The notes under the pieces were generated by a model that ran no database searches, was not told the DNA's origin, and was given only the letters and a program-made list of their open reading frames with translations. A stretch of 64,000 bases of DNA from Elusimicrobia bacterium GWD2_63_28 (GTDB lineage Bacteria; Elusimicrobiota; Elusimicrobia; Elusimicrobiales; UBA9959): positions 20,961 to 84,960 of the forward strand of contig MGUI01000004.1 of NCBI GenBank assembly GCA_001799895.1, read 5' to 3'. The position numbers and the translations under genes were made by a program. Shown here piece after piece: positions 13,144 through 42,358 of this stretch (positions within the stretch are counted from its first letter, which is position 1; the number at the start of each line of letters is the position of its first letter).

Positions 13144-13158
13144 GATGCTTATAGCCCG

Positions 13159-16302: not shown

Positions 16303-17166
16303 CTATCTCGCCATAACAGCTGCATCTATTAACTTCGCAAGTTCCACGCCATCCGCAGGGCGTTGCGCTTGATTGTGGGATAATGCGTTTACTAGTACGG
16401 GGAATAGATTTTTGGGGCCAGTCCAATCGGTTTCGGTAACATTCCCGCTTGGGTGTCGTCCAGTTGCTACAAACCAAAATACTGAGCCGAGTTGGAAGAC
16501 ATCGGATCGCTTTGAAATTGCGTCTGTATTGCCAACGGCCTTATTTATTGCTTCCGGAGACATCCAATATCTGGGGCCAATCACTTCATCTGCACTTGTA
16601 AGGTCATCTCCGGAACCAAACACTTCACACAACCCAAAATCACTTAGCAACCATGTTTCACCTTTAACTAATATGTTTTCAGGCTTAATGTCTCGATGTA
16701 CGGCTTTTTGATGTAAAACACCAAGAGCCTCCGCCAAGCCTTTAAACTGTGCGATATACTCCTCTGGCAGTGGCATCTGCCCATCGGTTTTAATCACATC
16801 TCGAAGATTCTTGTCTGCAATTGGCATGATTAAAAATGGGATTATGACATCTTTTTTCTCGGGCATCTGTATGCCTCTGATTTCGCCATGGTCTACATAG
16901 CTCATAAGCTGAGAATGCGTGAGCTGCTGATGAAGCTCTATCTCTTTCGTAAATCTCTGTTTTCGCTTTTCTGACAGTATTAGTTGAAATTTAACAGCAT
17001 AAGTATCACCATCAATTCGGTCGATGCACTCATATACAACAGCGTTTCCTCCTGCTCCCAATCTGTCACCTATTTCGTATTCACGCCCTTTGCCTGAAAA
17101 AAAGCTTGGGGCTATACGCCAAGAGTTCCTTGGTCGAGATGAGAAATAGAGATCAATGTGTGTCAT
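16303..17166 (-). CDS. Hanks-type Ser/Thr protein kinase (kinase domain only)
   Basis: Gly loop LGAGGNAVVY, AVKF lysine, HRDIKPENIL, DFGL, SPE. The start overlaps the DUF262 stop (ATGA at 17163..17166). Confidence 0.85.
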   Translation of the reverse strand: MTHIDLYFSSRPRNSWRIAPSFFSGKGREYEIGDRLGAGGNAVVYECIDRIDGDTYAVKFQLILSEKRKQRFTKEIELHQQLTHSQLMSYVDHGEIRGIQMPEKKDVIIPFLIMPIADKNLRDVIKTDGQMPLPEEYIAQFKGLAEALGVLHQKAVHRDIKPENILVKGETWLLSDFGLCEVFGSGDDLTSADEVIGPRYWMSPEAINKAVGNTDAISKRSDVFQLGSVFWFVATGRHPSGNVTETDWTGPKNLFPVLVNALSHNQAQRPADGVELAKLIDAAVMAR

Positions 17167-18509
17167 TCAATCATGCCATGTTCATTGTCTGGGATGGCAT
17201 ATGTGGCATCCCAGACATGATATTCATTTCTGGCTTTTTCTTTGCACGCATTGTGAATAAAGACAGCGTTCATTATCTGGAATGTGGTGGATGTTTTCTT
17301 CCAAGTTAGAAATACTTTCTCCGTGGAATAATCTTCTCCCTCCTCTCCGCACACTGGGCACGTGAATGACGCTGTGGGGCATACGCCAGGAGTGTATAAA
17401 TCCCATAATAGAGAATGAAAGACTTTAACTCCCTCAATGTTTGGCGGTCGTGAAAAATATGTGCCCTCAATCACTAGTTTCAAGAAGTCCTTGCGCCAGC
17501 GCCGGCTTGCTATGGAATTGGCTTGCGAAATACATTGGATGGCATATTTGCGCAGTATCCCGATCTCTGACTCTGGTTCTGTGTTGTAGTCAATAAGCTG
17601 AAGATCCTCTTTTAGGTATTCCGCAGAGCGTCCCTCTAGCGTCCCTCCTGTAGAATTGCACTCATCAATCGCGGCGAAAAGACTATAAAAATCCGCCTTC
17701 TGCCTAAATCTCATTTGAGAAAATGTCTTTATATCGAGTGTTTCCGCCGGCTGTTGATCGCTAATGCTTTTCATGTCTTTCAGAACGCGCTCGAAGCGGG
17801 CCTTGATTGCTGCTTTTTCGGATGTATCCCAACGCGCATAGTTTAAGTAAAAATCATCTAACGTGTCCCTCTTCTCCTGAGGCCCTGATATTAGCAGCGC
17901 AAGAAGTTCCGATACAAACTCGACATCCCCCATGCGCTTGCTATTTGCGATTGTAAAGACTTTTGCTTCTTCGAGAAATTGGCTCTGTGCTAATTCCTCT
18001 GAAAGCGACAGGAATTCGCCAGGGTAGTCGGCTCTTCGTAATTCCTGTCTATTTAATGCGACCGTATATTTGTTAACTCGCTGATAGATGTTTCGTACCA
18101 CATCGTCAGGGGCATTACGGATTTCGTTTGTATCTATTTTATAAGACAAAAAGTCGTCTTGTATCGAAGATGGTAGTTCCGAAAAGATGCGACCAATATA
18201 TTCCCCATCGTAGGGCGGAGCAAGTCGATAATCCCCTTTTAAAAATGACAAAATCGCCTTTATGCGCTGCTGGCCATCTATAACCACACGATATGTATCA
18301 GAATCTCTTACAATTGAGTGGAAAAATATCTTGGGCATTGGGATATTTTTCATGATAGTGTCCATAAGAAAAACACGTGCTGCAGGGGACCAAACCTCCT
18401 TTCTTTGAAAGTCAGGACGTATTTCAAGTCTTTGAGCAGTGCTCCAATCTCTAATATCTGAAATCGGATGCGAACTAGAAATCCATTTCCATGTCATTTT
18501 GTGCTCCAA
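17163..18509 (-). CDS. DUF262 (ParB/Srx-like, GmrSD/SspE N-terminal-type) domain protein with Cys-rich C-terminus
   Basis: DFQRKEVWS and IDGQQR motifs. The C-terminus has CPVCGEEG ... IHNAC. Shorter than a canonical SspE, and I saw no obvious DUF1524/HNH domain. Confidence 0.75.
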   Translation of the reverse strand: MEHKMTWKWISSSHPISDIRDWSTAQRLEIRPDFQRKEVWSPAARVFLMDTIMKNIPMPKIFFHSIVRDSDTYRVVIDGQQRIKAILSFLKGDYRLAPPYDGEYIGRIFSELPSSIQDDFLSYKIDTNEIRNAPDDVVRNIYQRVNKYTVALNRQELRRADYPGEFLSLSEELAQSQFLEEAKVFTIANSKRMGDVEFVSELLALLISGPQEKRDTLDDFYLNYARWDTSEKAAIKARFERVLKDMKSISDQQPAETLDIKTFSQMRFRQKADFYSLFAAIDECNSTGGTLEGRSAEYLKEDLQLIDYNTEPESEIGILRKYAIQCISQANSIASRRWRKDFLKLVIEGTYFSRPPNIEGVKVFHSLLWDLYTPGVCPTASFTCPVCGEEGEDYSTEKVFLTWKKTSTTFQIMNAVFIHNACKEKARNEYHVWDATYAIPDNEHGMIE

Positions 18510-18527
18510 GCAAGAAATATACTCTTG

Positions 18528-19484
18528 TTACCCTTTCCAATATATAACCTGTGAATGCCGAGGGGTATCCCAGGATATCTCTTTTGGGAAAAAATAGACC
18601 AACCAATCGTAAAAGACTCTTACGTTTTCCTTAACTTGCCAGCGATATGGCAGAGGGACATCCTCGCATTTCCGATGAATCCAGTCTGCAACCGCACCGA
18701 ATCGGAGACTGCTTTGTGCTTTTAAATAGGAAACAAAATCTACGACAAAGGGCGACTCTTGGAATGCACGCCTTAGCTGTTCAGTGAACTCTGAAGGAGA
18801 AAGGCCGGGCTTAATCTGAAACAGGACAAGGTCATGAATTGCCCGTCTAACCTCATCTGTTGTCTGGGGTGACGCGATTTGCAGGTAATAATTTCTCAGT
18901 TTATCTGGGGTATCGCTTGCCGGAAGAGACGACAATGAATATGCTTTCCTTTCAGGTGCGGGGATGTTCTTAAAGTATTCTTTTTCTACTTGAGGATTTT
19001 CTTTTTTGTATCTTTCAAGCTCAGAATTTAATGCAGAATAATATGTTTCATCAACCAGAGAGCTTTCATCGATAATTCTATAGATATGCCCCCAATCTGT
19101 GACTGATAATCTGGCGAAACTGCCAGCCTCAATATTTGGAGTCTTTCCAGTCCCCATCCCAGATTGTGTTAAGTTGCCACTAGTGTTCAATGCATGGTTT
19201 GATTCAAACACGTAAAGCTTAAGATGGATACTCTTGTTAACGAACAGCTGAATCCCCTTGTTGTGTAAATATGGATAAACACTTAAATCGGAAACCCCCG
19301 CAACAAGATCCGCAGGAGTCCACCGCACAACAATTTTAACGTCAAGGGGTGCCGGTATGCGCTCAACAAGGTTTTTCAAAGCGTCGAGTTTTATGAAAGG
19401 CGATATTACAAGGCGCAGCGAATCGCCGGCTTCAATTCGCTGCACTATTGCTTGCTCAATTGGTGGCCAGATCAAATCACCCAT
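18528..19484 (-). CDS. Single-HKD PLD-family nuclease (NgoFVII/BfiI-like N-terminal domain) with unknown C-terminal domain
   Basis: HLKLYVFESNHALNTSGNLTQSG motif in the N-terminal ~130 aa. Confidence 0.6.
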   Translation of the reverse strand: MGDLIWPPIEQAIVQRIEAGDSLRLVISPFIKLDALKNLVERIPAPLDVKIVVRWTPADLVAGVSDLSVYPYLHNKGIQLFVNKSIHLKLYVFESNHALNTSGNLTQSGMGTGKTPNIEAGSFARLSVTDWGHIYRIIDESSLVDETYYSALNSELERYKKENPQVEKEYFKNIPAPERKAYSLSSLPASDTPDKLRNYYLQIASPQTTDEVRRAIHDLVLFQIKPGLSPSEFTEQLRRAFQESPFVVDFVSYLKAQSSLRFGAVADWIHRKCEDVPLPYRWQVKENVRVFYDWLVYFFPKEISWDTPRHSQVIYWKG

Positions 19485-19522
19485 ATAGAACGCAGCCCAG
19501 CGTATGCATTAGAATTAAGATG

Positions 19523-21310
19523 CTATATACCATCAAAAAACTCTTCCGCAATCGTACCCCACTCAAACCGTGTCTTTTCGAGAGCTCTCCGTTTATCAAG
19601 CCCGGATTCGTCTTCCATTCTTGCCCAGGCGCTAATTAGCAGTTTAATTGCTTTCAACTCTGACGTGTCCCCATCTTTTGGAGTCCCATCTTCATTTGCA
19701 AGCACATCATAAAGGTTGTCGCACACACGGTGTTTTGTATTGATTGTAATTACTATCATCCCGCTTTCGGAGCGCACATCGAAAAATGCTGGGCTGGGCA
19801 ATTCTCCCTTCACAAAAATATACTTGTATTTCTTTTCAACAATAACTCGTGCTCTTGTCTCTGCTACTGCGGAGGGTTCTCCGTGTGAGATTAGTAGTTC
19901 TTCAATAGACTTTCTTTTTTTGGAGTCTGGCTCACTTTCTGTTTTATCGCTAGCCCCCGACTTTCCCTCTTGCTGGCGTTTCCTGGTTTTCTCTGTCGCC
20001 ATGACTTCCGCCGAGTTGGGGTCGTACGCTCCTCCCGCCTTAGCACCTGCTGCCTGCCTAGAGATCTGAGCCCGTAATGTGGATAGTTTTCTTGAGATTG
20101 CGTCGGAAATACGCGCAATTACCAGTAGCGGATCTTCAGCATCATCGAGTTCCTTTTCAAGCTCCTTACGAGTCTGGCCATAATCCTCCGCCAAACTATC
20201 CAAATCCGTAAACTTAAAATTTGTAGCGGATTGCTTCGTATTTGAAACCCCGAATATTCCATCTAGGTCTGGATGGAAGTCGACTTCGCAATGCCACCAC
20301 CGCTCGCGGGTGTCAACTGCCGTGAACGTGCTGTTCATTTCCAGCTCGCGATCAGCTCGGACCACTGACACACCCTGATTCTTTTTTAAGAACTGCCCAA
20401 TTGGAGAAGCGCCGCCTTCCGCGCGAACACTGGATGTCGCGATAGAAAAACGAATTTTTACTTTGTAGTGAATGTTATTTAGTCGGACATTTACAATTTC
20501 CTCTCCACAATCATCGCAAGCGGCCTCTTTCGCATAAATTCCAGGAGCACATGTCCCGACCATCAAGCCCAAAGGATCGTTTGCTTTAAGAACGCGGTTT
20601 TCATCAAGTGCTTCGTTATCGCTTTCGTCAATGGAATATACCTTTAGAGATATCTCTGCTTGCCCGCGCTGCAAAAATCGCCGGTAAATTCTGCCGATTA
20701 AAAATTCAGAGTTTTTTAATATCGTGGCACCGGTTCGCCATTGAATTCTATCTAGCTTCTTCCATACAACCAGTGTACCGTGCTGTTTGTTGATAATTTC
20801 TTCCCCAATCCTTTTTGCCCAGTGAGCAGGGATCTTATCTTCCTTTGGGGTCGGAACCGTCTCGGTTCCTTTCGATTTAATTTCGTCTATATCAAGGTAT
20901 GAGTGTAAGACATGTCCTTTTTGCCACGTCCAGACATCCACTCTCCTGCCGCAAGAAATGGAGGAGTTGGGTAAGCCCATACCGAATTTACCAATCCCCT
21001 CATGGCGGGTTTTTCCAGTGTTGGTCCCGTTCCCGAATGCTAAGGCTTTTGAAAGCACTTCGGCGTTCATTCCGCAGGCATTGTCAAAGACGGCAATCTC
21101 TTGAATACAACTTTTGCCGCGGCCCCGTCCCGATGAGGCCTGCTTTCTATCCAATGTGATAACCTGAACTTGGGTGCAATCATTGTGGCCAAGGCCGGCT
21201 TGAATGCTGTTATCAATTAACTCGGCAAGAGCATGTGCTGGATCGCGATATCCACTATCGCGCATGGCTTCAATTGCCAAATCAACTGGCATTATTTTCT
21301 GGGAAATCAT
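19523..21310 (-). CDS. GHKL (MORC/HATPase_c_3-like) ATPase
   Basis: N-box LAELIDNSIQAG, FDNACGM, GIGKFGMG. Start moved to ATG 21310 (AAGGAG RBS, 2 nt after the helicase stop) from track start 21328. Confidence 0.8.
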   Translation of the reverse strand: MISQKIMPVDLAIEAMRDSGYRDPAHALAELIDNSIQAGLGHNDCTQVQVITLDRKQASSGRGRGKSCIQEIAVFDNACGMNAEVLSKALAFGNGTNTGKTRHEGIGKFGMGLPNSSISCGRRVDVWTWQKGHVLHSYLDIDEIKSKGTETVPTPKEDKIPAHWAKRIGEEIINKQHGTLVVWKKLDRIQWRTGATILKNSEFLIGRIYRRFLQRGQAEISLKVYSIDESDNEALDENRVLKANDPLGLMVGTCAPGIYAKEAACDDCGEEIVNVRLNNIHYKVKIRFSIATSSVRAEGGASPIGQFLKKNQGVSVVRADRELEMNSTFTAVDTRERWWHCEVDFHPDLDGIFGVSNTKQSATNFKFTDLDSLAEDYGQTRKELEKELDDAEDPLLVIARISDAISRKLSTLRAQISRQAAGAKAGGAYDPNSAEVMATEKTRKRQQEGKSGASDKTESEPDSKKRKSIEELLISHGEPSAVAETRARVIVEKKYKYIFVKGELPSPAFFDVRSESGMIVITINTKHRVCDNLYDVLANEDGTPKDGDTSELKAIKLLISAWARMEDESGLDKRRALEKTRFEWGTIAEEFFDGI

Positions 21311-21312
21311 AA

Positions 21313-22935
21313 TTAATTCTCCTTCCATATGTTGTTCCAGTGATTAAATAAATCCCCGATACTCTTAAATCCTGGAATATTGTCTTGCACTGAAACTATC
21401 TTCGAGACGTCGTTCCCTCCAACCTTGTGCCCACGCAATGCTCGTCCAACCATTTGGCTATAAAGCCCCACTGAGCTGGTTGGACGGGCAATAAACGCAA
21501 CGTTCGTTTTTGGGGCATCAAATCCTGTGGTGAGTACGCCATAGTTGGTTATCACCATGGGATCTTTAGAGTCTTTAAATTCAGATAAGGCTTTGGTTCT
21601 TTGAGTTGAATCGGTATCACCCGTTACAGAATACGCTTTTATCCCACGCTTTTTTAAGATATTTGCCAGTGTTTTGGACTGTTTAACAGAACAGGCGAAT
21701 AAAATCATTTTCATGGTTTTCTTCGCCATTTGAAGCTGACTTAATTCTGTTTCGATTCGCTTAATTATTGCCAGGTTCCTGTAGTCACTTGCCCCCAGTT
21801 TAAGTAAGACAGAATCAGGCAAGTCAAATCCGGTTTGTAACGCAGAAAGCTCTTCCTGAGTTAAAAGCAACTTTGCCCCCCAGGGGATGTTGAGATCTTC
21901 GAAGATTGGAGAGGAAAGGTATCCCTCTTTTTGTAGATACTCTACGGGGTTACTGTATCCGTCCACCTCAAGAGTCACTCGATTGCCATGAAAGAAATCT
22001 CTTAAAGTGTCGGAGTCTTTTTGAGATACCGCTCTTCCTGGTGTTGCAGATAATCCAAGAATTGAGGGGGTGCGCGAAATCTGGAGCAAGTTGACTAGAT
22101 GTTGATATGTCGGGGCAGGAAGCTGATGAGCTTCATCAAACACAACAAACACTGTTCGTTTAGAGAGTTTGAGGAAATCACTTTGATGGTCAAGACTGTG
22201 CTTGTATAACAACGGAAGACTGGAAACAAAAAAACCATTTTTAACATCACTTAGGGATGAGACTCTTGCGTCCCCATAATGTCTGTATATTGTAACAGGA
22301 CGTTGGCCAAACTCCCCCCACGCCTTTTCAAACTCATCGGCGGCTTGGTTGCACAACTCCTCTGAGTACGCTAGCCAAATCACCACATCATCTGGGGCGG
22401 CTATTTCTCTCAAGTAGTGGGCGACAACATTCATTGCCGTTCTGGTCTTTCCTGAACCCGTCGGCATGTGCAACAATACTCGTCCGGCAGAATTCAATGC
22501 GTGCAAGACTTTCAAATATGCTTCTCGCTGATGCGGGAACAAAGGGTGGGTTGGAACAATCTCTTTTGATGGCAATAATTTGTTGGTATTCTCGGCTAAT
22601 GGTTCTTTCACTCCAAAATAATCAAACAAAGTTTTAATGTTCTCAGAGCCTTTTCTGAATTTAATATCCCCCACTTGATATCCGATGCCAGCTTGCCCCA
22701 AACTTTTTGCGAGCAGGTTCACATCTGGTTCGCGAAGCGCACGGATAATTTGGGGGCGTATTTTATTGTCGGTCAAAAGGCCAGTTGCGCCAATTGACTC
22801 AATAAGAAGATCGGCCATGGATGCGCAATCGTATTCCATTTCAAGCAACTTGATGAGGGCGACATCTTCCTTGCCGATTAACCCCACAAGTTTGGCGGCC
22901 CCAAGGCGAATTAGAGTTTCCTTTAGTTTATCCAT
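21313..22935 (-). CDS. SF2 DEAD/DEAH-box helicase (type III restriction Res-like)
   Basis: Motif I HMPTGSGKTRTA, motif II VVFDEAHQL, SATPGR, motif VI YSQMVGRALRG. Confidence 0.85.
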   Translation of the reverse strand: MDKLKETLIRLGAAKLVGLIGKEDVALIKLLEMEYDCASMADLLIESIGATGLLTDNKIRPQIIRALREPDVNLLAKSLGQAGIGYQVGDIKFRKGSENIKTLFDYFGVKEPLAENTNKLLPSKEIVPTHPLFPHQREAYLKVLHALNSAGRVLLHMPTGSGKTRTAMNVVAHYLREIAAPDDVVIWLAYSEELCNQAADEFEKAWGEFGQRPVTIYRHYGDARVSSLSDVKNGFFVSSLPLLYKHSLDHQSDFLKLSKRTVFVVFDEAHQLPAPTYQHLVNLLQISRTPSILGLSATPGRAVSQKDSDTLRDFFHGNRVTLEVDGYSNPVEYLQKEGYLSSPIFEDLNIPWGAKLLLTQEELSALQTGFDLPDSVLLKLGASDYRNLAIIKRIETELSQLQMAKKTMKMILFACSVKQSKTLANILKKRGIKAYSVTGDTDSTQRTKALSEFKDSKDPMVITNYGVLTTGFDAPKTNVAFIARPTSSVGLYSQMVGRALRGHKVGGNDVSKIVSVQDNIPGFKSIGDLFNHWNNIWKEN

Positions 22936-23113
22936 AACGGATTATGTCCGCAGAGTATTCCCAGCTAACCTAAGTATAGATTTCTATATTACTAATTATT
23001 GCCATTGGGGTTCACTATAATGTGAGAATAAATCCGTGCAAGTGTTGTAATGACTCAACACGAACGCAAAGATGGCGTATTTAGGAAGAGGCGGAACTAC
23101 TAGTGGTGAAGGA

Positions 23114-23956
23114 CTATTTGTGGCAAGCCAAACAGACTTTTGACTGCCCGTATAAATCATCCATATCTACTGGCAGATTGTTTGATCGAAGAGGGTTCTG
23201 GATTGACTTGGCCTTAAGCCGTGCTAGCCGTTTTTCATAGTCGGCTTTTATTTGTTTGATTCGCTCCGGCTTAGACATGTCCTCAAGTGACTCCCGCTCT
23301 GACCATGTAAACTGAGAGCCGGCTGCAGTGGCTGTCTTTTCATAGCGTTTGGCTTCTTCAAAAGCTTCGGGGTGTCTTTCTAATAATCTCACCCATTCAA
23401 TTTTTCTTTGAAAAAAACAAAAGGTACAGCCGCTACGCGATCTCCAGGCATAATAGTCTGGAAGTCCTAGTCCGGAATGGTTTAGGATATCAATTACCCC
23501 CTGTTTGTCGATGCCTGCGTCTTTAAATGGAAGCTTTACAATCAGATTATTATCTCGCGATTGATATCCTTCCCGGTATTCCTCGTCGGACCTTATTGCC
23601 ACGTAGGAGTAGACGGTCTCTCCCCTCTCCAAAAAATTACCAACCCACTTCTCGAACGGCTTTAGTTTCATCTGTATCGTGCACCATCGAGTCTGTGCGG
23701 AGGGAAGAAAATTATTGTACTGCATGAGCCAGAAATCAAAACCCCTATCGGGGTTGATTCTTAGTATCGGGCGACCTAAATAGCCTTCCAGCTTGCTTAG
23801 ATAAGAATAAACCTCTGGAAGTTCTTTCCCTGTGTCTGTGAAAAAATATTCTATTTCTAGTTCAGGGTGATTGTCACGCATGAAGACAGCCAAAGCAGCG
23901 CTATCTCTTCCGCCAGAGAGTCCTAGTACATGTTTCAGCTTGTTCCCCATGGTCAA
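23114..23956 (-). CDS. sspD: PAPS-reductase/PP-loop ATP pyrophosphatase, SspD/DndC-like
   Basis: PP-loop LSGGRDSAA; Cys pairs CTFCFF and VCLACHK; 1 nt downstream of the large ATPase gene. Confidence 0.75.
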   Translation of the reverse strand: MTMGNKLKHVLGLSGGRDSAALAVFMRDNHPELEIEYFFTDTGKELPEVYSYLSKLEGYLGRPILRINPDRGFDFWLMQYNNFLPSAQTRWCTIQMKLKPFEKWVGNFLERGETVYSYVAIRSDEEYREGYQSRDNNLIVKLPFKDAGIDKQGVIDILNHSGLGLPDYYAWRSRSGCTFCFFQRKIEWVRLLERHPEAFEEAKRYEKTATAAGSQFTWSERESLEDMSKPERIKQIKADYEKRLARLKAKSIQNPLRSNNLPVDMDDLYGQSKVCLACHK

Positions 23957-23957
23957 G

Positions 23958-26900
23958 TTAGTTTATTGATGCTTTTTTAGTAAGACGATCTGCCAAAGAC
24001 ATCCCGAGCTCAGCAATTGCCGCCAAGATATGCTTTTCATTGGTCGATAATGCCTTGGCGGATTTGAGTATCTTGTCCTTAAGTCTTTCGATTTCAGGGG
24101 CATGCTCCTCTAGAATGTCGAATTCAGCCTCTGAGGTTGTTGGCGAGCCATTTTTCCCCGTGATGATTGCAACGGCGTATCTCGAAGGGTGGCGATTTTT
24201 TATCTTAGTGTACAATTCTGCTTTTTTGAATGCCGAGCACATCGCAATTAGTTGCGCCTGCGCATTTTGGATGTCGAGATCAATCCATTCCGTAGGCGGC
24301 TTGCTAATCGCAAGGCTAACCAATCCTGCGATATCCTCAAGTGTGCCAGAAAAAGTTGAAAGACGCGAGGCAAATCCATCCAAGCGGAAATCGCCAGATG
24401 TCCCTGCAACTTTCTTTGCCCGTTCATTTAGCTTTTTAAGGTTTTGCGGGCTGGGGAATAAAACCTCAAGCTCCGAAGTGATGAGTGTTCCAATCCGCTG
24501 CATAGCATTCGGGTATGTGGCGATTAATTCCCCCATGCTTTTTTTGAATTCACTCACAATGGTGGTTGAATTAGGGGTGCCTCTAGATTCAAGAATGATG
24601 GGCGAAAATATTTCAGCAAGATCATCAAATAGCATCTTATTTGGATCTTTCGCCGATTTCACCATTTCCCGGAACTTGGTAGTAGTCTTAGAGAGTTCCC
24701 GCGTTTTTAGCACCCAAGGGTGCAGGTCATAAATTACTGAAACCACATGTCTAGAAACTTCCAAAGGCGAAGAGTGCCGTGGGATTTGATGAGTAGGGAG
24801 GAGCTCATTTACGGCCGCAATTATTCCGGACAGAATCCCCTCCGAAACCGTATCCAGCTCAGCCCAGCGAAGAGTGATTACTTCCGGAGCTTTTAACAAA
24901 TAGTCGATGATAAGATCATCAAATTTGGTGACATAAAACCCCTCTCGGTAAACAGCGATAGAATCCTTTCGGGTAAGCAGGTATGCAACCGCAAAAAACG
25001 GATGCATCGCATTTTTAATACCATAGGGCGGCTGTTCCCATATATCGTATATAGCACCTAGATTCAACGCCCCCTTTGAGTTTTTAATTGCAGAGTCTGC
25101 TGCATTCCAGGCGTTGTGTAGCCCATGTTTATCCCCAGATTTAGGAGACGTAATCGTAAAATGTTTTTCCTTATCGCTAGTGTAAAGACCCGTTTCTTCT
25201 AACAATATTTTAAAAAGCCCTTTTTCCGGAGGATATCCTTCAATGCCAAGATTTGGCTCTCCATCCTTTAGAATCATGCTGCGAAGAAGCTCGTGGAGGG
25301 CGGAATTTGCGCTCGCAGATGCACGCTTTCTGTTCAAAAGTTCGCTCTTAATTTTAGGGGACTTCTTGTATACCGCCGCACATAATTTGGACGCTATGGC
25401 GCTCAATTGCGCACTTGGCATCCTGCCGAGGCGTTCACCGTTATGATGCCAGCTAGAAGCTATTAGAACTTCGGATAATTTGCCCTCAAGCAACGAAGTC
25501 GTTGCGGCAATTCGGCCTTCAATTTCTCTGCGCGCAACAGAATCAGAAGAGAGTTCACCTTTGTTATTGTAAATCCATTCCAGAGCAAGAAGTTCTTTTG
25601 AATACGCATTTATGAGATATGATTCCCTTGCTACAGCAAGTAACACGGGGAAATGGGGATCACTTTTGTGCTGCTTTACATATTCTTCCGCACGGCGTGT
25701 TTCACTAGCGTTAAATGGGAGTAGAATCGAGAATAGTCCCGATGCCGTGGAGTTTTGTTTTTCGTTGTTAAGGAATTCGGAGATTTCCGAAATCGGAGCT
25801 ATAGTGACGTTAAACCAACGCATTGCCCCATATTCGTGATAGTATCTCTTTGCGATTACTGGCTTGAAATTAGCAAGTTTCGATAGGCGTGCGACATCAA
25901 CATCATTGGTTTTTGAAAACGCTTCGCGGAGGGCAGAGTCCAGGTCGAAGTCACTGCCCTCAAATATCGAATACGAGTCAGTATGTTTCTTGTATATTGT
26001 GACGGATATCTTCTCCAGATCGCGAAGCAGGTCTGCGATTTTGACGGTATTGCCAAAAACTGCGTCAAGAACTTGAACTGTGGGAGAAAGACCAGAGGTG
26101 GTCCCCTTAAAAATATCAATCACTGCAATCGTCTTTAACAAATTTATATGAGCTAGGCTAAACCCTTTAGCTTCGGCTCTGGAGATAGCGTCTAATGCAA
26201 TGCTCCATAACCTGGAATCTGAGGAAGACATGATTAGTGACTCGAAATTGTCTTTCAGATAATCGAAATACCGATGTGGTTTATATAGAGTCCCGCCCGC
26301 ATAGTCCTCTAGCTTGAGGAAATCCCTGAATCCTTCTGGCTCGGCCGAGTTTAGGAACGAAAAAATGCTGCGCTGATTCTGGCCAAACTTTCGTTTTGAT
26401 ACTGGGCCAAGCAGACATGCCACAACCGGATCTAAAGGCCAACAGTTGGACAAGCTTTCCTGAAGACGTTTTTCGTTTACTGGCCTATTGCGCGCAATCG
26501 TGGCCACGATTTGCTTTACTGGTGTGGTGGCACTTTTGGGCTTTTTGTCGGATACAATTGCCCGGCCAATAAGCTCAATTTGTTCCTCACCGGCGGCATT
26601 GACCGGCATGTCGATGAACCTGCCCTGGATCTTTATCCACTCGTCCCTAGTGGTGTGGGGTAGTGACCGAGCATATTCAGTAAATGCTTGGTGTAATATT
26701 CCAATTAGAATTATTTTCTTTTTGCTGCGAGAGGCGAATTCCGCTAGTTGCTGAAAAAAATAAACATCCGCTTCCCCGCGAGCAGCAGCCTCAAGAATCT
26801 TCCCCATTTCATCCACAAAAATTATGAGACCATCATTTCTGTTCGCGATTTCTGTTAAGACTTGGAACATTCTTTCTTTGGTCGACACGTTTTTGGCAAG

Positions 26901-27302
26901 TTTCAGTGTTTCCAAATGGCGTTGAACTAAACCGAACGGATCCTTGGGCTCGCCAATGATGGGCAGGATTTCCCAGCCTGATCTAACGCCAAGATTTGTT
27001 TGAATCTCTCTATATGACTTTGCCGAAATAACTTTTTGGGCAGCTTGTCGTAAATTTTTGCTTTTCGATACTATAGCGCTCAGCAGCAATACAAGGCTGG
27101 ATTTGCCAGACCCATAGGGGCCTGTCCAGGTAAAAGAAGCCTGCCCATTTGTCGCCACATTGTTCGCCACATTAAGGAGTGCGCTTTCCGAAGAATGTGG
27201 GCAAATAAAACCAGAGAGTATCGACTCATCATTGATATCAGTCTCAATATTTATAGATCTGACGAACCGACTATTAAGTGAAACAATTTCCGAGTATTTC
27301 AT
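23958..27302 (-). CDS. sspC: Large P-loop ATPase, SspC-like
   Basis: Walker A TGPYGSGKSS, Walker B LIIFVDEMGK; 1114 aa; sits between the DUF4007 gene and the PAPS-reductase gene. Confidence 0.65.
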   Translation of the reverse strand: MKYSEIVSLNSRFVRSINIETDINDESILSGFICPHSSESALLNVANNVATNGQASFTWTGPYGSGKSSLVLLLSAIVSKSKNLRQAAQKVISAKSYREIQTNLGVRSGWEILPIIGEPKDPFGLVQRHLETLKLAKNVSTKERMFQVLTEIANRNDGLIIFVDEMGKILEAAARGEADVYFFQQLAEFASRSKKKIILIGILHQAFTEYARSLPHTTRDEWIKIQGRFIDMPVNAAGEEQIELIGRAIVSDKKPKSATTPVKQIVATIARNRPVNEKRLQESLSNCWPLDPVVACLLGPVSKRKFGQNQRSIFSFLNSAEPEGFRDFLKLEDYAGGTLYKPHRYFDYLKDNFESLIMSSSDSRLWSIALDAISRAEAKGFSLAHINLLKTIAVIDIFKGTTSGLSPTVQVLDAVFGNTVKIADLLRDLEKISVTIYKKHTDSYSIFEGSDFDLDSALREAFSKTNDVDVARLSKLANFKPVIAKRYYHEYGAMRWFNVTIAPISEISEFLNNEKQNSTASGLFSILLPFNASETRRAEEYVKQHKSDPHFPVLLAVARESYLINAYSKELLALEWIYNNKGELSSDSVARREIEGRIAATTSLLEGKLSEVLIASSWHHNGERLGRMPSAQLSAIASKLCAAVYKKSPKIKSELLNRKRASASANSALHELLRSMILKDGEPNLGIEGYPPEKGLFKILLEETGLYTSDKEKHFTITSPKSGDKHGLHNAWNAADSAIKNSKGALNLGAIYDIWEQPPYGIKNAMHPFFAVAYLLTRKDSIAVYREGFYVTKFDDLIIDYLLKAPEVITLRWAELDTVSEGILSGIIAAVNELLPTHQIPRHSSPLEVSRHVVSVIYDLHPWVLKTRELSKTTTKFREMVKSAKDPNKMLFDDLAEIFSPIILESRGTPNSTTIVSEFKKSMGELIATYPNAMQRIGTLITSELEVLFPSPQNLKKLNERAKKVAGTSGDFRLDGFASRLSTFSGTLEDIAGLVSLAISKPPTEWIDLDIQNAQAQLIAMCSAFKKAELYTKIKNRHPSRYAVAIITGKNGSPTTSEAEFDILEEHAPEIERLKDKILKSAKALSTNEKHILAAIAELGMSLADRLTKKASIN

Positions 27303-27305
27303 CTT

Positions 27306-28268
27306 TTAATCCTTGAAATTCCTGATTAAAGACTTCCTAGCCTTTACGTCAAGGTGGACGGTGTATTTTTCAGTTCTGTTGAGCACAACTTGTCTTAACC
27401 CAGCGGTTTCTGACCACTCTAGGAGCCCATTGGTTTCATCTGCAAGCTTATGGGCAAACCCCACAATGGCATCTTCGTCTAAGAAGAATATTCGCCCAGG
27501 AGATTTCGGCTCATAACATATTGACTCTAGTGATAATGTTGAGGCATTGGGGGCGTAGGTTTCCCAAAATTTTAGAAGTCCGAAGACAAACGTGTGGAGA
27601 GAAAGGCTGGCTTTCCAGCCCCGTCTTGGCTGAAACACATCCCGCCTCCGTATCGGGGCGATTAATCCTAACTCCGTAAGAGGTGATTCGATGCTGTCCT
27701 CGTCAAAGTCTCCACTTTTTGTTATTTTAGGAACATACATCCGAATAAAACACTCAACATCGCGTTTTACAGTTAGCGGAGATGCGTTCGCCCAGCTTTG
27801 TTCTTTAGCAAGATCCAACAATGACTTTGAGAGACTGTCCCGATCAAAGAGAGATCCATTCCAATAGTTAAAGAACCAATCGTAGGTAATTAGTGATGAA
27901 TTTGCGGCGAGGTTCCAGTGGAAGTACCATATTGTGGCCGGGTTTTCCATCCAAGGATCAAGGCCCTCGTCGCTTAACAATTCTCGCGCAAAATCGTTAA
28001 TTTTTAGCTCGCGATTTTCGTCAATATCGAAAACCCCACACACCTGAGCCCAATGGCGTATGGAGGAAACCATGTTTTTCCCGACACCAAAGGCCGCAAT
28101 ACTTTCTTCGTTATTAAAAACATCTTTGATTATCGATTTCTTATGCTTCTCCGTTAGGATTGCCGCGTCGAAAGCTTTTTTCAGCCACCCATACCGCAGT
28201 GGAAATGTCTCATGTCCGGAAAAGATGGGCTTTATCCCCTCTTTTGCCGTATAGTTGCTATTTGCCAT
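27306..28268 (-). CDS. sspB: DUF4007-family protein, SspB-like
   Basis: N-terminal FSGHETFPLRYGWLKK signature. Track start 28325 is a TTG; ATG 28268 (MANSNY) has a GAGG RBS. Confidence 0.7.
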   Translation of the reverse strand: MANSNYTAKEGIKPIFSGHETFPLRYGWLKKAFDAAILTEKHKKSIIKDVFNNEESIAAFGVGKNMVSSIRHWAQVCGVFDIDENRELKINDFARELLSDEGLDPWMENPATIWYFHWNLAANSSLITYDWFFNYWNGSLFDRDSLSKSLLDLAKEQSWANASPLTVKRDVECFIRMYVPKITKSGDFDEDSIESPLTELGLIAPIRRRDVFQPRRGWKASLSLHTFVFGLLKFWETYAPNASTLSLESICYEPKSPGRIFFLDEDAIVGFAHKLADETNGLLEWSETAGLRQVVLNRTEKYTVHLDVKARKSLIRNFKD

Positions 28269-28283
28269 ATTAAGTTGCCTCGT

Positions 28284-28348
28284 TACTGGAAGAGTGCTCC
28301 AGGAAGCCTTTTTTGTATGATACAATAATACTGGAACAGCTTTCCAGT
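28284..28348. promoter_or_regulatory. Divergent sspB/sspA control region with two TACTGGAA-containing palindromes
   Basis: CTGGA-N7-TCCAG at 28286..28302 and ACTGGAA-N5-TTCCAGT at 28330..28348. Both begin with TACTGGAA, 45 nt apart. Confidence 0.35.
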
Positions 28349-28369: not shown

Positions 28370-29542
28370 ATGAGAAATATTATGCCTGAACGCATATTTT
28401 TAGACTACAACTCAACTACCCCCCTAGATCCTATAGCCCTTGAGGCAATGCTGCCATACATGTCTACGCAATACGGAAATCCTCATTCATCTGAACACAG
28501 TTTCGGATGGGAGGCTGAAAAGGCTATAAATGAGTCTCGGACATTTATTGCCGGACTTCTTAATTCTTTAGAGGATGAGCTCATTTTCACTTCAGGGGCT
28601 ACTGAATCTAATAATGCTGCGATTCTTGGGGTTGCGTTTAAAGCCTTAGAGAAATCGAAAAAAAAGACGATCATTGTATCCGAAATAGAGCACAAATGTG
28701 TGATTGGAGCCGCACGATTTACAGAGAAATTCGGCTTTAAAGTTTTAAAAGCTCCTGTGGGTAAAGATGGTGTCGTGGATATGGGCAAGTTGTCGTCGAT
28801 GATTGATCCTAACACCTTGTTGGTGTCGGTAATGGCAACCAACAATGAAATAGGGACCAATCAACCGATAGCTGAAATAGGCAAAATATGTAAAAGGAAC
28901 GATGCCGTATTCCACGTCGATGCGGCACAAGGCTTATATTCCGGAGTAGATGTGGCCGAGGCGGATATAGATTTGTTAAGTGTTTCTGCTCATAAAATAT
29001 ATGGACCAAAGGGGGTTGGAGTGCTTTTCATTAGCCAGAATCTTCAACTCAAACCGGACCCAATAATTCATGGCGGCGGGCAGCAAAATGGCTTTCGCTC
29101 CGGAACTATCCCCACCCCGTTAATCGTCGGGTTCGGAGCGGCTGCAAAAATATTTAGTGAACAAAGAGATAGTGAGAAAGCGCGACTTCAAGAGTTAAGG
29201 GACTATCTCATTACATTGCTGCAGAGCCAAATCCCATCTATAAGGGTAAATGGATCATTGAAGAATCGGCATCCCGGAAATATCAATATTTTGTTTCCAG
29301 GTATAGAGGCTAAGCAATTGATTCTAAAGCTGCAACCCTCTATGGCAGTTTCAACAGGGTCAGCTTGTACCAGCGGAATTCCTGAGCCATCCCATGTTTT
29401 GCGCGCAATCGGACTTTCAACAAAAGATGCAGAATCATCACTCCGCATTTGTGTCGGGCGCCAAACGACTAAAGAGCAGGTAGACATCTTTGCGCAAACC
29501 CTTATATCCGTTGTTAAGGAATTAGGAAACAATTCCATTTAA
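28370..29542 (+). CDS. sspA: Cysteine desulfurase (NifS/IscS class V aminotransferase), SspA/DndA-like
   Basis: PLP-lysine motif SAHKIYGPKG, catalytic Cys STGSACTSG; divergent from sspBCD. Confidence 0.85.
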   Translation: MRNIMPERIFLDYNSTTPLDPIALEAMLPYMSTQYGNPHSSEHSFGWEAEKAINESRTFIAGLLNSLEDELIFTSGATESNNAAILGVAFKALEKSKKKTIIVSEIEHKCVIGAARFTEKFGFKVLKAPVGKDGVVDMGKLSSMIDPNTLLVSVMATNNEIGTNQPIAEIGKICKRNDAVFHVDAAQGLYSGVDVAEADIDLLSVSAHKIYGPKGVGVLFISQNLQLKPDPIIHGGGQQNGFRSGTIPTPLIVGFGAAAKIFSEQRDSEKARLQELRDYLITLLQSQIPSIRVNGSLKNRHPGNINILFPGIEAKQLILKLQPSMAVSTGSACTSGIPEPSHVLRAIGLSTKDAESSLRICVGRQTTKEQVDIFAQTLISVVKELGNNSI

Positions 29543-29646: not shown

Positions 29647-30123
29647 GTGGCAACAGCAAAAATGGACTCACAGGAAATCCACTACAAACCCGCCCCCCAA
29701 GAGAAAAGCCTTGTAGCTAGGCTTTTCAGCGATAAGATACAGCGTCAGCGACTTTCGGTTACTGAAATCATTAACCTAATTAACGAGCGACAGGCCATGC
29801 TTAACCGGAATGTTAAGACCCTGGATTACCAGCTTTGCCAAATAGGAGGGCTGAAGAGTACCTTCGACACCATTCACTACACGGCAGACCTTGGCGCGCT
29901 GATCAAGGACAAAATCGGTTTGGAGAAAAGTGTGACCGAACTTGAAATGAAGAAAGCGGACGAATACAAGCAGTGTTGGAAGGATATCAGCACCCTCAGG
30001 AAGGACCTCCTCGATGGACTGGTGGAATACATGGCACTGCAGAAAAAGGCCGAGCTACTGTCTCCTAGCTACAGAGAATACGATAAGACCAGCCCCTATC
30101 CCCCTAAACCCACATACTCATGA
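29647..30123 (+). CDS. Hypothetical coiled-coil protein
   Basis: 158-aa ORF (GTG; alternative ATG at 29662). Its stop overlaps the start of the ATPase gene (ATGA at 30120..30123). Confidence 0.5.
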   Translation: MATAKMDSQEIHYKPAPQEKSLVARLFSDKIQRQRLSVTEIINLINERQAMLNRNVKTLDYQLCQIGGLKSTFDTIHYTADLGALIKDKIGLEKSVTELEMKKADEYKQCWKDISTLRKDLLDGLVEYMALQKKAELLSPSYREYDKTSPYPPKPTYS

Positions 30124-40246: not shown

Positions 40247-40279
40247 CCTTCCACTAGACAGTCCCCAAAATTAGCGCAC

Positions 40280-40314
40280 CGCGACAAAACCCTGTCGCGG
40301 TGCTTGCTTATACT
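40280..40314 (+). promoter_or_regulatory. Island operator/promoter copy 3: CGCGACA-aaaccc-TGTCGCG + 9 nt + TATACT
   Basis: Perfect palindrome at 40280..40299; TATACT at 40309..40314; AAGGAGG RBS and ATG 40336 follow. Confidence 0.65.
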
Positions 40315-40335
40315 ATTGCAAATCAAGGAGGCCAT

Positions 40336-41562: not shown

Positions 41563-41563
41563 T

Positions 41564-42315: not shown

Positions 42316-42340
42316 CCCTGTCGCGCTGTCCTGCCATAAT
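42306..42340 (+). promoter_or_regulatory. Island operator/promoter copy 4: CGCGACA-tagccc-TGTCGCG + 9 nt + CATAAT
   Basis: Perfect palindrome at 42306..42325, overlapping the last codons of 41866..42315; ATG 42359 is 18 nt after the hexamer. Confidence 0.6.
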
Positions 42341-42358
42341 ATTGCTGAGGCAAACATT

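Follow-up and report, generated by a model that had tools for sequence, protein, structure and literature searches.

The five genes that lie 3' of sspB-sspC-sspD on the minus strand of this window (the whole stretch of 64,000 nucleotides that was analysed) raise the question of whether they form a single restriction arm of the adjacent phosphorothioation system, as the earlier note supposed. The phosphorothioate-writing genes are readily recognized. sspB (27306-28325; PADLOC SspB, 2.2e-98), sspC (23958-27302; SspC, E=0) and sspD (23114-23956; SspD, 1.1e-133) are all on the minus strand, the block (23114..28325) has Pfam matches to DUF4007 and PAPS_reduct, and sspA, encoding a cysteine desulfurase (28370..29542, plus strand; PADLOC SspA 8.3e-140, Pfam Aminotran_5 8.2e-78), is divergent from sspB. 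These genes and the five of interest are carried on a low-GC, defence-rich integrative island, for which the integration site is tRNA-Met. The five closely spaced open reading frames are all in the same direction and code for an SF2 helicase of the ResIII/DEAD type (21313..22935, 540 aa), a MORC/SMCHD1-like GHKL ATPase (19523..21310, 595 aa), a single-HKD PLD-family (Nuc-like) nuclease (18528..19484, 318 aa), a DUF262 protein with a ParB-like NTPase domain (17163..18497, 444 aa) and a minimal Hanks-type Ser/Thr kinase (16303..17166, 287 aa). The cluster described in the earlier note is thus real, as seen by open reading frames, Pfam and PADLOC, although the gaps it listed (2, 38, 18 and -4 nt) require some correction. 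The 38 nt gap between the GHKL and PLD genes stands, as does the -4 nt gap between the DUF262 and kinase genes (ATGA, with the kinase start over the DUF262 stop), and the 2 nt gap between the helicase and GHKL genes holds only if the latter begins at the ATG at 21310, which has GGAG 8 nt upstream and agrees both with the gene as called by JGI and with homologue N-termini. The 18 nt gap between the PLD and DUF262 genes is counted from a TTG at 18509 (448 aa), but the ATG at 18497 is preferred because it has a GGAG Shine-Dalgarno sequence and fits both the homologues at their N-termini and the 444 aa called by JGI, and the gap is then 30 nt.

Between the stop codon of sspD and the first codon of the helicase gene lies a spacer of 178 nt (22936..23113, minus strand), which had been proposed to contain a separate promoter. 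The sequences TTGCAC (23041-23036) and TATAGT (23019-23014), with a 16-nt spacer, can be read directly on the minus strand, but they match the consensus at only 8 of 12 positions (the -35 hexamer at 3 of its 6) and are not called by a consensus promoter scan, and the region contains fewer promoter-like sites (20) than shuffled sequence does (30.1 +/- 5.8). A promoter of their own for the helicase-to-kinase genes is therefore unproven. No terminator-like site was found by a scan of the spacer (22936-23113), so read-through from sspBCD into the helicase operon is equally possible.

Comparison with related loci shows that the five genes are two separable modules in tandem and not one system, contrary to the single five-gene arrangement first proposed. 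The helicase, GHKL ATPase and nuclease genes constitute module 1, for which locus counts refer to the best 80 loci of GHKL relatives (relatives are encoded in 415 GTDB species genomes), and the DUF262 and kinase genes constitute module 2. The DUF262-kinase pair is present in just 1 of the 80 GHKL loci and a GHKL or PLD gene in approximately 7 of 80 DUF262 loci, and each module combines freely with SspE, SspFGH or Pbe-like genes. It is very unlikely that the five genes form a single Ssp restriction machine with all five products as obligate subunits, even though they are co-directional with spacings of 2, 38, 18-30 and -4 nt, Andreprevotia (L013) and L139 repeat the order of trio followed by DUF262-kinase, and L099 and an Elusimicrobiota genome also have both modules together. 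Against it, 79 of the 80 GHKL loci lack the pair, about 73 of the 80 DUF262 loci lack GHKL and PLD genes, and the pair partners SspFGH, SspE or Pbe-like genes as readily. L012 and L013 are loci of the same type, without and with the DUF262-kinase cassette respectively, and in L012 the trio is complete.

The association of module 1 with Ssp is strong and crosses phyla. The possibility that these genes occur mostly without ssp neighbours is not borne out for either module, and for module 1 an sspB, sspC or sspD gene is present within 10 kb of the GHKL relative in 43 of 48 fully flanked loci, spanning at least 10 phyla; by comparison, sspBCD is carried by approximately 3% of genomes (PMC12914056). 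The commonest order, sspB-sspC-sspD-helicase-GHKL-PLD(-sspA), is found among the best 80 loci in Cyanobacteriota, Planctomycetota, Chloroflexota, Acidobacteriota, Gemmatimonadota, Actinomycetota, Armatimonadota, Latescibacterota, Caldisericales, Ignavibacteriae and alpha-, beta- and gamma-proteobacteria, and the helicase gene adjoins the GHKL gene in 74 of these 80. A minimal annotated example is on Pannonibacter phragmitetus plasmid p.BB_2, and one in a model strain is on plasmid A of Trichormus variabilis ATCC 29413. The third position is always nuclease-like yet is swappable: a PLD gene directly follows the GHKL gene in 29 related loci (30 counting the window), and in 17 loci the third gene encodes a 360-aa protein whose N-terminus matches a PADLOC endonuclease effector model (9e-16). 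In beta- and gamma-proteobacteria PLD is replaced by a different predicted endonuclease. In 25 of the 43 Ssp-positive, fully flanked loci the module 1 trio is the sole candidate effector recognised, and among the same 43 it is together with SspFGH in eight and with SspE in four; module 1 is therefore not simply an alternative to these, and could serve the modification side. Of the remaining fully flanked loci, two related ones from Chloroflexi have the helicase and GHKL genes amid genes of sugar metabolism, where neither ssp genes nor a nuclease gene are close by, and in three others sspBCD was not found within 10 kb. GHKL relatives of no more than 25% identity occur in other contexts. We also note that many Nostoc loci have a helicase gene cut short by an IS-like insertion, so that module 1 is often decaying.

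The domain assignments made earlier for the helicase, GHKL, DUF262 and kinase proteins agree with Pfam, and the catalytic motifs of all five proteins are intact and invariant across each family. The helicase (ResIII 1.7e-21, DEAD 1e-14, Helicase_C 1.5e-13) has the motifs GSGKT160, DEAH267, SAT296 and QMVGRALR494 and an uncharacterised N-terminal region of approximately 125 aa. The GHKL ATPase (HATPase_c_3, 4.6e-19) has an S5-type transducer domain and a helical C-terminal region, and E30/N34, D76xAxG80 and G107KFGMG112 are invariant across 17 homologues; it has more than 2000 homologues in all. Its MORC-like character is upheld by fold, in that an AF2 model (pLDDT 78) has its best Foldseek matches, over about 400-450 columns, to SMCHD1 (6mw7, 3e-13), MORC4/3/2, GyrB/ParE and the PMS1 N-terminus, and MORC4/3/2 are also the best PDB matches by sequence. 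The nuclease consists of a PLD domain of approximately 130 aa and an uncharacterised C-terminal domain of approximately 190 aa. Its PLDc_2 match (6.8e-5, 23.2 bits) is just under the Pfam cut-off of 27, but the assignment is supported because H87, K89, S102, N104, N117 and E119, which include the HKD motif, are 100% conserved in 32 family members, and the family profile matches the solved nucleases 7e0m (3e-6), SauUSI 7clg (1e-4) and NucT 6ehi (9e-4). It also matches PADLOC DrmC (6.8e-12).

Module 2 is likewise linked to Ssp: of 28 DUF262 loci that have 5 kb or more of sequence on each side, 27 contain ssp genes. The kinase gene is the next gene after DUF262 in all 65 loci with room for one, often with a 4-nt overlap. 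The partners of module 2 in Ssp islands are SspFGH, SspE, PbeABCD-like genes or module 1, in arrangements that include sspBCD-DUF262-kinase-sspFGH, sspFGH-DUF262-kinase facing sspDCB, sspBCD-PbeABCD-like-DUF262-kinase and GHKL-PLD-DUF262-kinase. A variation is seen in L093, L095, L101 and L144, where the pair adjoins SspB-like, SspC-like and HerA-like genes and no sspD is seen in the fetched stretch, such that the pair may be partnered with the SspB/C machinery and not with the phosphorothioate mark. The DUF262 protein (GmrSD_N, 3.9e-19) has a helical middle domain and a conserved Cys/His C-terminus; 16 homologues all keep DGQQR78-82, C384, C387 and H419, and at least 90% of them keep C422. 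Pfam detects no DUF1524 in it and it lacks a nuclease domain, its best PADLOC match is a partial one to NsnA (3.8e-41), and its structure model, in which the N-terminal half is poor, gave no structural match. In the kinase family (Pkinase, 2e-31) all 66 members share the residues K59, E75, H157-R158-D159, K161, N164, D176 and G178 (DFG), P204-E205 of SPE, D222 and R269, and 98% have S203. The best PADLOC matches of the window kinase are PD-T4-6 (1e-36) and mad6 (3e-36).

A plausible scenario, to which we give a probability of roughly 60%, is that these are two Ssp-associated modules, of which the first is an ATP-dependent restriction complex and the second an SspE-type sensor with a phosphorylation output. 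For module 1 the most likely logic would be like that of type I/III enzymes or the MutL-UvrD-MutH trio: the SF2 helicase would translocate along DNA, the GHKL dimer would be an ATP-gated clamp or matchmaker, and a dimer of the PLD nuclease, forming one HKD active site, would cleave DNA, with the single-strand phosphorothioate of SspABCD marking host DNA as self. For module 2, an SspE-type sensor is most likely, in which the ParB-like NTPase and a DNA-binding helical domain would read phosphorothioate or the state of the DNA. The output would be protein phosphorylation and not DNA nicking, and might lead to growth arrest upon infection or tune the adjacent Ssp modification or restriction proteins. 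From the domains and gene neighbourhoods we infer complex formation, phosphorothioate discrimination, the nuclease and kinase targets and antiphage activity, and either module may restrict unmodified DNA.

Module 1 could instead be an accessory of phosphorothioate writing or repair, with, for example, the helicase and GHKL clamp opening or scanning DNA for SspBCD and the PLD protein nicking DNA so as to prepare or resolve sites of modification. Such a role would fit with its almost constant location in the sspBCD operon, often between sspD and sspA, with its presence alongside the established restriction arms SspE and SspFGH, and with the requirement of Ssp writing for a nick, SspB being a nickase. 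It is nonetheless unlikely, as the nuclease position swaps between unrelated nuclease folds, which is typical of effectors, many sspBCD loci, including most of the DUF262 set, are without the trio, and the SspABCD systems of E. coli and Vibrio write phosphorothioate without module 1 genes (PMC8092258).

A regulatory role for module 2 is possible but doubtful. The pair would then act as a DndB-like governor, responding to phosphorothioate density or to nucleotides, and would set the activity of SspBCD or of the adjacent restriction arm by phosphorylation. Module 2 coexists with every kind of restriction arm, is usually last in the operon, and occupies a position that in other Ssp loci holds a DndB-like or SspE-like DUF262-family gene. 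In BREX type 2 a BrxC-type ATPase (an SspC homologue) is paired with the kinase PglW, which contains an SspB-like DNA-binding triad (PMC12839542), and some DndF proteins carry a fused S/T kinase domain (PMC10853773). However, the module 2 kinase is without a known target, an HTH of the DndB transcription-factor type is not detectable in the protein, and stand-alone defence kinases of similar size exist, as the PD-T4-6 match illustrates. That both modules are independent defence systems gathered beside ssp genes in islands, with phosphorothioate irrelevant to their function, is highly improbable. The defence-rich nature of the island, the distant GHKL relatives and the two Chloroflexi loci are consistent with it, but ssp adjacency is approximately 90% or higher for both modules in many phyla and many gene orders, the modules are often inside the ssp operon itself, and the next three genes in the window, which are ordinary island neighbours, are conserved in 0 of 160 related loci. 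Because both gene sets recur beside ssp genes across phyla, the arrangement is far beyond chance.

Returning to the two-module reading, neither module was found under any name in PADLOC, NCBIfam or the searchable literature (to 2026), and since each recurs beside Ssp genes in many bacteria, both are strong candidates for new effector arms of Ssp DNA-backbone-based immunity. As restriction arms tied to phosphorothioate modification, SspFGH and DndFGH lie beside sspBCD or dndBCDE, as the window genes adjoin sspBCD, and SspFGH, which comprises a Walker-A protein, an FtsK-like protein and one that has no recognisable domains, is toxic when the modification is absent (PMC8092258). The five proteins have no homology to SspFGH or DndFGH, and the PADLOC models for SspE and SspFGH that match the real ones in related loci (1e-182 to 0) match none of them; the five genes fall outside SspE, SspFGH, DndFGH and PbeABCD, and the view of the earlier note that this is not a canonical SspE holds.

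The DUF262 protein shares with SspE (DUF262 plus DUF1524) its Ssp linkage and an N-terminal DUF262 NTPase with DGQQR followed by a helical domain, but it differs in lacking the DUF1524/HNH nuclease, in its Cys/His end and in being always paired with a kinase, and it can coexist with a real SspE (Asticcacaulis pASTEX02). It is only remotely like SspE, with hhalign to genuine SspE aligning motifs I-II only (probability 8.6%), and phosphorothioate sensing is thus an extrapolation from SspE, in which DUF262 is a phosphorothioate-stimulated GTPase switch (PMC13251355; PMC12065111). If correct, a DUF262 sensor in Ssp would have a kinase output in place of DNA nicking. Menshen (NsnABC), with which PD-T4-2, another DUF262 system, is grouped here, has in NsnA the same ParB-DUF262 and helical DNA-binding layout (PMC12065111), but module 2 lacks the NsnB ABC ATPase and the NsnC effector. 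PD-T4-6 is a stand-alone kinase, and MADS mad6 and PglW are large multidomain proteins of methylation-based systems, in contrast to the minimal, DUF262-paired kinase of the window; none of these five is described as a DUF262-kinase pair or as Ssp-linked.

For module 1, the Dnd-linked PbeABCD is similar in being phosphorothioate-linked and in bringing together an SF2 helicase, an HKD nuclease and an ATPase that dimerises or clamps; PbeA is an HKD nuclease fused to an SF2 helicase and PbeC a CxC ABC ATPase (PMC10853773). PbeA is the nearest PADLOC relative of the window helicase, but the match is weak and partial (3.5e-30, helicase core only; 22-25% identity to PbeA-type helicases), and genuine Pbe-like sets in other Ssp islands score E=1e-245, so the window trio is a different family. 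Its nuclease and helicase are in separate genes, its ATPase is GHKL and not ABC, and it lacks PbeB, a small protein, and the PbeD/DndE-like protein. Iyer, Abhiman & Aravind 2008 (PMC2292703) predicted that prokaryotic MORC genes form restriction systems with the SF2 helicases and the HKD or REase nucleases encoded beside them. These MORC/paraMORC operons have the same GHKL+S5 ATPase, helicase and HKD/REase nuclease, are heavily transferred between lineages and have a setting like that of restriction-modification genes. The nuclease there is fused to the helicase and the modification partner is a DNA methylase, rather than SspABCD; phosphorothioation, Dnd and PAPS are unmentioned in PMC2292703, and the link of such an operon to SspABCD was not reported in it. 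Finally, MutL-UvrD-MutH serves a different process and includes a MutS-like sensor that module 1 lacks, and homology is limited to the GHKL fold (PMS1 N-terminus), but it provides an analogy in which a GHKL ATPase couples a helicase to a latent nuclease, and the choice of the DNA to be cut depends on an epigenetic mark.

The five genes downstream of sspBCD in the window are two modules, each independently tied to Ssp phosphorothioation, since a trio (module 1: SF2 helicase, GHKL ATPase and PLD nuclease) and a pair (module 2: DUF262 protein and Hanks kinase) recur separately beside ssp genes. The Ssp modification core itself is complete, with sspB (27306-28325), sspC (23958-27302) and sspD (23114-23956) adjacent on the minus strand and sspA (28370-29542) divergent from them, all four recognised by PADLOC with E values from 1e-98 down to 0. 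A 178-nt spacer separates sspD from the SF2 helicase (21313-22935, 540 aa), the GHKL ATPase (19523-21310, 595 aa), the PLD-family protein (18528-19484, 318 aa), the DUF262 protein (17163-18497 or 17163-18509, 444 or 448 aa) and the Hanks kinase (16303-17166, 287 aa), which all lie on the minus strand, as the earlier note had observed. The five gene models match the public JGI calls (metagenome 3300025309, contig Ga0209212_1000292, 103,460 bp). The spacings first proposed are correct overall, and the 2 nt between helicase and GHKL genes depends on translation starting at ATG 21310, a codon preceded by GGAG and consistent with the homologues. The more likely start of the DUF262 gene, however, is ATG 18497, which is preceded by a GGAG Shine-Dalgarno and agrees with the JGI call and with the homologue N-termini, such that the gap after the PLD gene is 30 nt and not 18 nt.

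A separate promoter had also been suggested for these genes. The hexamers are indeed present (23041-23036 and 23019-23014), but just 8 of their 12 positions agree with the consensus, and they are not called by a consensus scan, in which promoter-like sites in the region are fewer than in shuffled sequence; a sigma-70 promoter in the spacer is thus without statistical support. With no terminator-like site found in the 178 nt either, a separate transcription unit for the five genes is not established. Rfam and repeat scans of the locus returned nothing.

The catalytic motifs of the module 1 proteins are intact. The helicase has intact GSGKT, DEAH, SAT and QxxGRxxR motifs, and the Bergerat-fold motifs of the GHKL protein (E30/N34, D76xAxG80 and G107KFGMG) are invariant among 17 homologues. 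An AlphaFold model of the GHKL protein (pLDDT 78) matches, across 400-450 aligned columns, the ATPase-transducer modules of SMCHD1 (E=3e-13), MORC4/3/2, GyrB/ParE (GyrB 43K) and PMS1, and in comparisons with PDB sequences the MORCs are the sole matches, albeit weak (6e-4). The description 'MORC-like' therefore holds at the level of the modelled fold; the N box, G1-like and G2 motifs and the S5-fold transducer domain of MORC-type operon ATPases are all present. The PLD protein has a single HKD motif; H87, K89, S102, N104, N117 and E119 are 100% conserved across 32 relatives, and its family profile matches the phospholipase 7e0m, the PLD-helicase restriction enzyme SauUSI (7clg) and the nuclease NucT (6ehi); its C-terminal 190 residues match no assigned domain. 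In some loci the third gene instead encodes a 360-aa protein (X360) with no Pfam match and nothing meaningful among PDB sequences by phmmer. Its N-terminus matches a PADLOC endonuclease-effector model (9e-16), from which match alone a nuclease role is predicted.

Relatives of the GHKL protein are present in 415 species genomes, and neighbouring genes were clustered for the best 80 loci. Across these, a recurrent arrangement is sspB-sspC-sspD-helicase-GHKL-PLD, in many cases with sspA next; it is seen in cyanobacteria, planctomycetes, Chloroflexota, Acidobacteriota, Gemmatimonadota, Armatimonadota, Latescibacterota, Caldisericales, Ignavibacteriae, alpha-, beta- and gamma-proteobacteria, and a Mycobacterium. 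The helicase adjoins the GHKL gene in 74/80, and a PLD or other endonuclease is the gene that follows it in 46/80. Of the 48 loci flanked on each side by 8 kb or more, 45 contain the helicase and 43 have sspB/C/D within 10 kb; two of the remaining five run off into sspFGH and one keeps sspA. For scale, sspBCD occurs in ~3% of genomes (PMC12914056). The trio is the sole recognised candidate effector in 25 of the 43 ssp-positive loci; SspFGH is also present in 8 of the 43, SspE in 4, a DndB-like gene in 3, a c21/c22 gene pair in 2 and DUF262-kinase in 1. Because the third slot is occupied by PLD in 29 related loci and by X360, with its endonuclease-effector match, in 17 (mostly beta/gamma-proteobacteria), it is predicted to be a swappable nuclease, as is typical of effectors. 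A GHKL relative at just 34% identity, on a Pannonibacter plasmid, is still part of a clean sspA|sspBCD-helicase-GHKL-PLD operon; relatives at 25% identity or below are in unrelated contexts. Two related Chloroflexi loci have helicase-GHKL amid sugar-metabolism genes and without ssp genes or a nuclease. A blastn search of E. coli complete genomes with a Pseudomonas trio gave no match, and no full-length homologue of the GHKL or DUF262 protein was found in phage genomes.

Several other features of these loci deserve mention. SspFGH lies directly upstream of helicase-GHKL-endonuclease and faces sspDCB in loci of beta/gamma-proteobacteria (L012, L014, L018, L020-L022, L027 and L054) and in L024 and L028, so that many 'SspBCD-SspFGH' loci hold three extra conserved genes between their parts. 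In a set of loci from Nostocales and other cyanobacteria (L025, L031, L033, L037, L039, L041, L043, L044, L048, L053, L057 and L063) the helicase is truncated to ~280-365 aa, and beside it is a ~460-aa ORF with weak Cas9-like (RuvC/HNH region) PADLOC matches that is probably an IscB/TnpB-type IS element. Several of the cyanobacterial loci with a truncated helicase also lack sspD, which, together with the truncations, points to recurrent decay of module 1. Plasmid A of the model cyanobacterium Trichormus variabilis ATCC 29413 (NC_007410.1; L161) carries sspBCD, a 768-aa protein annotated 'DndB', helicase, GHKL, PLD and a cysteine desulfurase; the gene just upstream bears the annotation 'DNA phosphorothioation-associated putative methyltransferase'.

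The earlier note had treated the five genes as a single system, and this does not hold: DUF262-kinase is found in only 1 of the best 80 GHKL loci, that of Andreprevotia (L013), whose sister locus in Vogesella (L012) is identical except that it lacks the pair, and elsewhere the pair joins SspFGH, SspE and Pbe-like sets. The DUF262 protein was for this reason taken as a second anchor, which gave ~950 homologues at 50-70% identity, and 80 metagenomic loci were fetched. The kinase directly follows DUF262 in all 65 loci that extend far enough, the two genes commonly overlapping by 4 nt, and ssp genes are present in 27 of the 28 loci whose flanks reach 5 kb or more on each side, the 28th having a divergent SspC-like gene. 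The proposed link of the genes to Ssp is thereby borne out for both modules. The arrangements include sspBCD-DUF262-kinase-sspFGH; sspFGH-DUF262-kinase opposite sspDCB; sspBCD and PbeA/B/C/D-like genes followed by the pair (as in Paenibacillus auburnensis); the pair opposite sspDCBA and SspE (Asticcacaulis excentricus CB48 plasmid pASTEX02); and, less often, the window's own order GHKL-PLD-DUF262-kinase. The DUF262 protein has GmrSD_N as its only Pfam domain, without DUF1524, and among relatives DGQQR and the C-terminal C384, C387 and H419 are invariant, with C422 nearly so. Its AF2 model (pLDDT 72) is poor in the N-terminal half, and Foldseek comparison of this model with the PDB gave nothing below E=1; its profile matches no PDB sequence. 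In the kinase, every Hanks catalytic residue is 100% conserved across 66 relatives.

We note two additional contexts among the DUF262 loci. In L093, L095, L101 and L144 a HerA/DndH-like ATPase (941 aa), an SspB-like protein (285 aa) and an SspC/BrxC-like ATPase (~1430 aa) precede DUF262-kinase, and no PAPS-reductase gene lies within the fetched stretch; this gene set may be a phosphorothioate-independent relative of Ssp. PbeA/PbeC-type genes (E 1e-110 to 1e-245), together with PbeB- and PbeD-sized ORFs, are present inside bacterial Ssp islands (L145-L157, several of them human gut metagenomes, and L102, L103, L143, L168 and L169). As Pbe is described as a partner of Dnd in the available portions of PMC10853773 and PMC12707154, the pairing with Ssp seems worth recording.

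The locus lies in a region of distinct composition. In a profile across the window (1-64000), GC content steps from ~45% to ~63% at ~50.2 kb, and the step coincides exactly with a tRNA-Met gene (50273-50349, minus strand) that adjoins a tyrosine integrase (49196-50206, minus strand; Phage_integrase 4.5e-38). The low-GC part, including the Ssp locus, thus has the appearance of an integrative island, 50 kb or longer, within a high-GC host. Three co-directional genes (10828-16121, minus strand; a 383-aa protein of unknown function, a 605-aa PLD-domain protein and a 771-aa SNF2 helicase) follow the kinase after a 181-nt gap and have only weak PADLOC matches (ZacB 3.6e-13, ZacC 2.6e-24, PDC-M27B/C). 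Their absence from every one of the 160 related loci excludes them from the system, and they have the look of a distinct defence candidate that is possibly uncharacterised. Directly after sspA is a 158-aa ORF that overlaps the start of a 695-aa HerA/DUF87-type ATPase gene (29647-32207, plus strand); these match mad8 (2.3e-13), HerA models and, very weakly, DndH in PADLOC, and are not found in the related loci. Further defence-flavoured cargo spans 39239-48040 and includes a WYL+WCX regulator (39239-40246), an AAA ATPase (40300-41562), an MBL/RMMBL-fold nuclease (42359-43714) and a DUF2779 protein (46523-48040).

A plausible scenario is that module 1 forms an ATP-dependent restriction complex, which we regard as its most likely role. 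The helicase would translocate along DNA, the GHKL protein as an ATP-bound dimer would clamp DNA or license its partners, much as MutL does for UvrD and MutH, and cleavage would be by PLD, with one HKD active site built by two subunits. The SspABCD phosphorothioate could block module 1 on host DNA, as with SspFGH and DndFGH, which predicts toxicity upon removal of sspBCD, or it could be required for activation, as with SspE, which predicts none. Module 2 most likely acts like the sensor half of SspE, its ParB-like NTPase and helical DNA-binding domain switching state on phosphorothioate-modified or foreign DNA, and its output passing to a kinase rather than to a nuclease; the kinase may then arrest growth, as other defence kinases do, or tune the Ssp proteins. 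In the fullest form of this proposal the pair is a signalling arm of phosphorothioate immunity, in which the ParB-like NTPase would read the backbone sulfur mark or the SspB/C scanning complex and turn on a eukaryote-type kinase, converting the epigenetic state of the backbone into protein phosphorylation, and the trio is a third widespread Ssp restriction arm, about as frequent as SspE or SspFGH. This is tentative, and we would give it a probability of roughly 0.3. A serious rival is that module 2 is a regulator rather than an effector, since DUF262-kinase accompanies every type of restriction arm, is also found beside SspB-like and SspC-like genes without sspD in the fetched stretch, and has a parallel in BREX type 2, where an SspC-like ATPase is paired with a kinase bearing an SspB-like DNA-binding triad (PMC12839542).

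The locus is a predicted phosphorothioate-based defence with two new, widespread partner modules. Among sspBCD clusters, 7.3% are with SspFGH, 7.4% are with SspE and ~85% are without a known restriction partner (PMC8092258), a gap that two more conserved modules would partly fill. Module 2 would give a DNA-modification-sensing system a kinase output. Module 1 would tie bacterial MORC-like ATPases to an experimentally tractable function, MORC and SMCHD1 being eukaryotic chromatin silencers. Cultured carriers are available in the Trichormus variabilis ATCC 29413 (plasmid A), Pannonibacter phragmitetus BB (plasmid p.BB_2), Asticcacaulis excentricus CB48 (plasmid pASTEX02) and Paenibacillus auburnensis strains. 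A 2025 review recognises three phosphorothioate-linked restriction branches, dndFGH/sspFGH, sspE and pbeABCD (PMC12707154), and the searched reviews and primary papers to 2026 give no others apart from the sensing effector DndI (PMC12707154, PMC13251355); in the available text of a May 2026 SspE paper, Dnd and sspFGH are the sole compatible systems mentioned (PMC13251355). Neither module appears in the accessible portions of comparative studies of Dnd, BREX and Menshen (PMC10853773, PMC12839542, PMC12065111), and no paper in the openly searchable full text to 2026 names either one. The searched full-text literature contained nothing relevant on SspI/J/K.

Profile comparison with SspE, SspF/G/H, DndF/G/H and PbeABCD, as the earlier note had proposed, places none of the five proteins within these systems. 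The departure from canonical SspE had been noted correctly: the DUF262 protein lacks DUF1524, has no PADLOC SspE match at E<0.01 (the model scores 5.6e-256 on a real SspE, in L008) and an hhalign probability of 8.6%, with only the QR...W/DGQQR region aligning. The possibility left open at that stage, identity with SspFGH, is negative too: the SspF/G/H models score 2e-182, 9e-218 and 0 on L012 and match none of the five proteins, and the published composition differs, comprising a Walker-A protein SspF, a domainless SspG and an SspH of ~1800 aa with an FtsK-like C-terminus (PMC8092258). DndF/G/H likewise give no PADLOC match, and differ in content (P-loop kinase-like DndF, triple-wHTH DndG, and DndH with REase and HerA/FtsK domains). 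The best match of the DUF262 protein is Menshen NsnA (3.8e-41), but Menshen has the order NsnA (DUF262 and ParBDB), NsnB (ABC ATPase) and NsnC (effector), whereas here the next gene is invariably the kinase, and NsnB and NsnC are both absent. Over the kinase core only, the kinase resembles the stand-alone PD-T4-6 (9.9e-37) and mad6, and it is here obligately paired with DUF262; at least 24 PD-T4-6 models match it, and these are apparently general Hanks-kinase models. Mza is represented only by a weak partial MzaB match (2.5e-13; NCBIfam 57.6 bits against a cut-off of 850) without MzaA/C/D/E, and DISARM only by a weak partial DrmC match (6.8e-12) without DrmA/B/(D/E/MI). None of the five proteins receives a specific NCBIfam name, and RefSeq names of the relatives examined are generic ('ATP-binding protein', 'phospholipase D family protein', 'DUF262 domain-containing protein', 'protein kinase').

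PbeA is the best PADLOC match of the window helicase, over the helicase core only (positions 242-436 of 672) and without the N-terminal HKD, the PLD being a separate protein. PADLOC finds no PbeC (CxC-type ABC ATPase) or PbeD (DndE-like) in the window, where the ATPase is instead of GHKL type; real PbeA and PbeC in L153 and L143 score 1e-245 and 1e-110. PbeA is an HKD-helicase fusion that acts with an ABC ATPase (PMC10853773), and module 1 resembles Pbe in its logic of nuclease, helicase and clamping ATPase but is not a member. It also has the SF2 helicase and nuclease neighbourhood of MORC-type operons, and restriction-like operons of a prokaryotic MORC-like ATPase, an SF2 helicase and an HKD or REase nuclease were predicted in 2008 (PMC2292703); in the available part of that account phosphorothioation is unmentioned and the partners of these operons are methylases.
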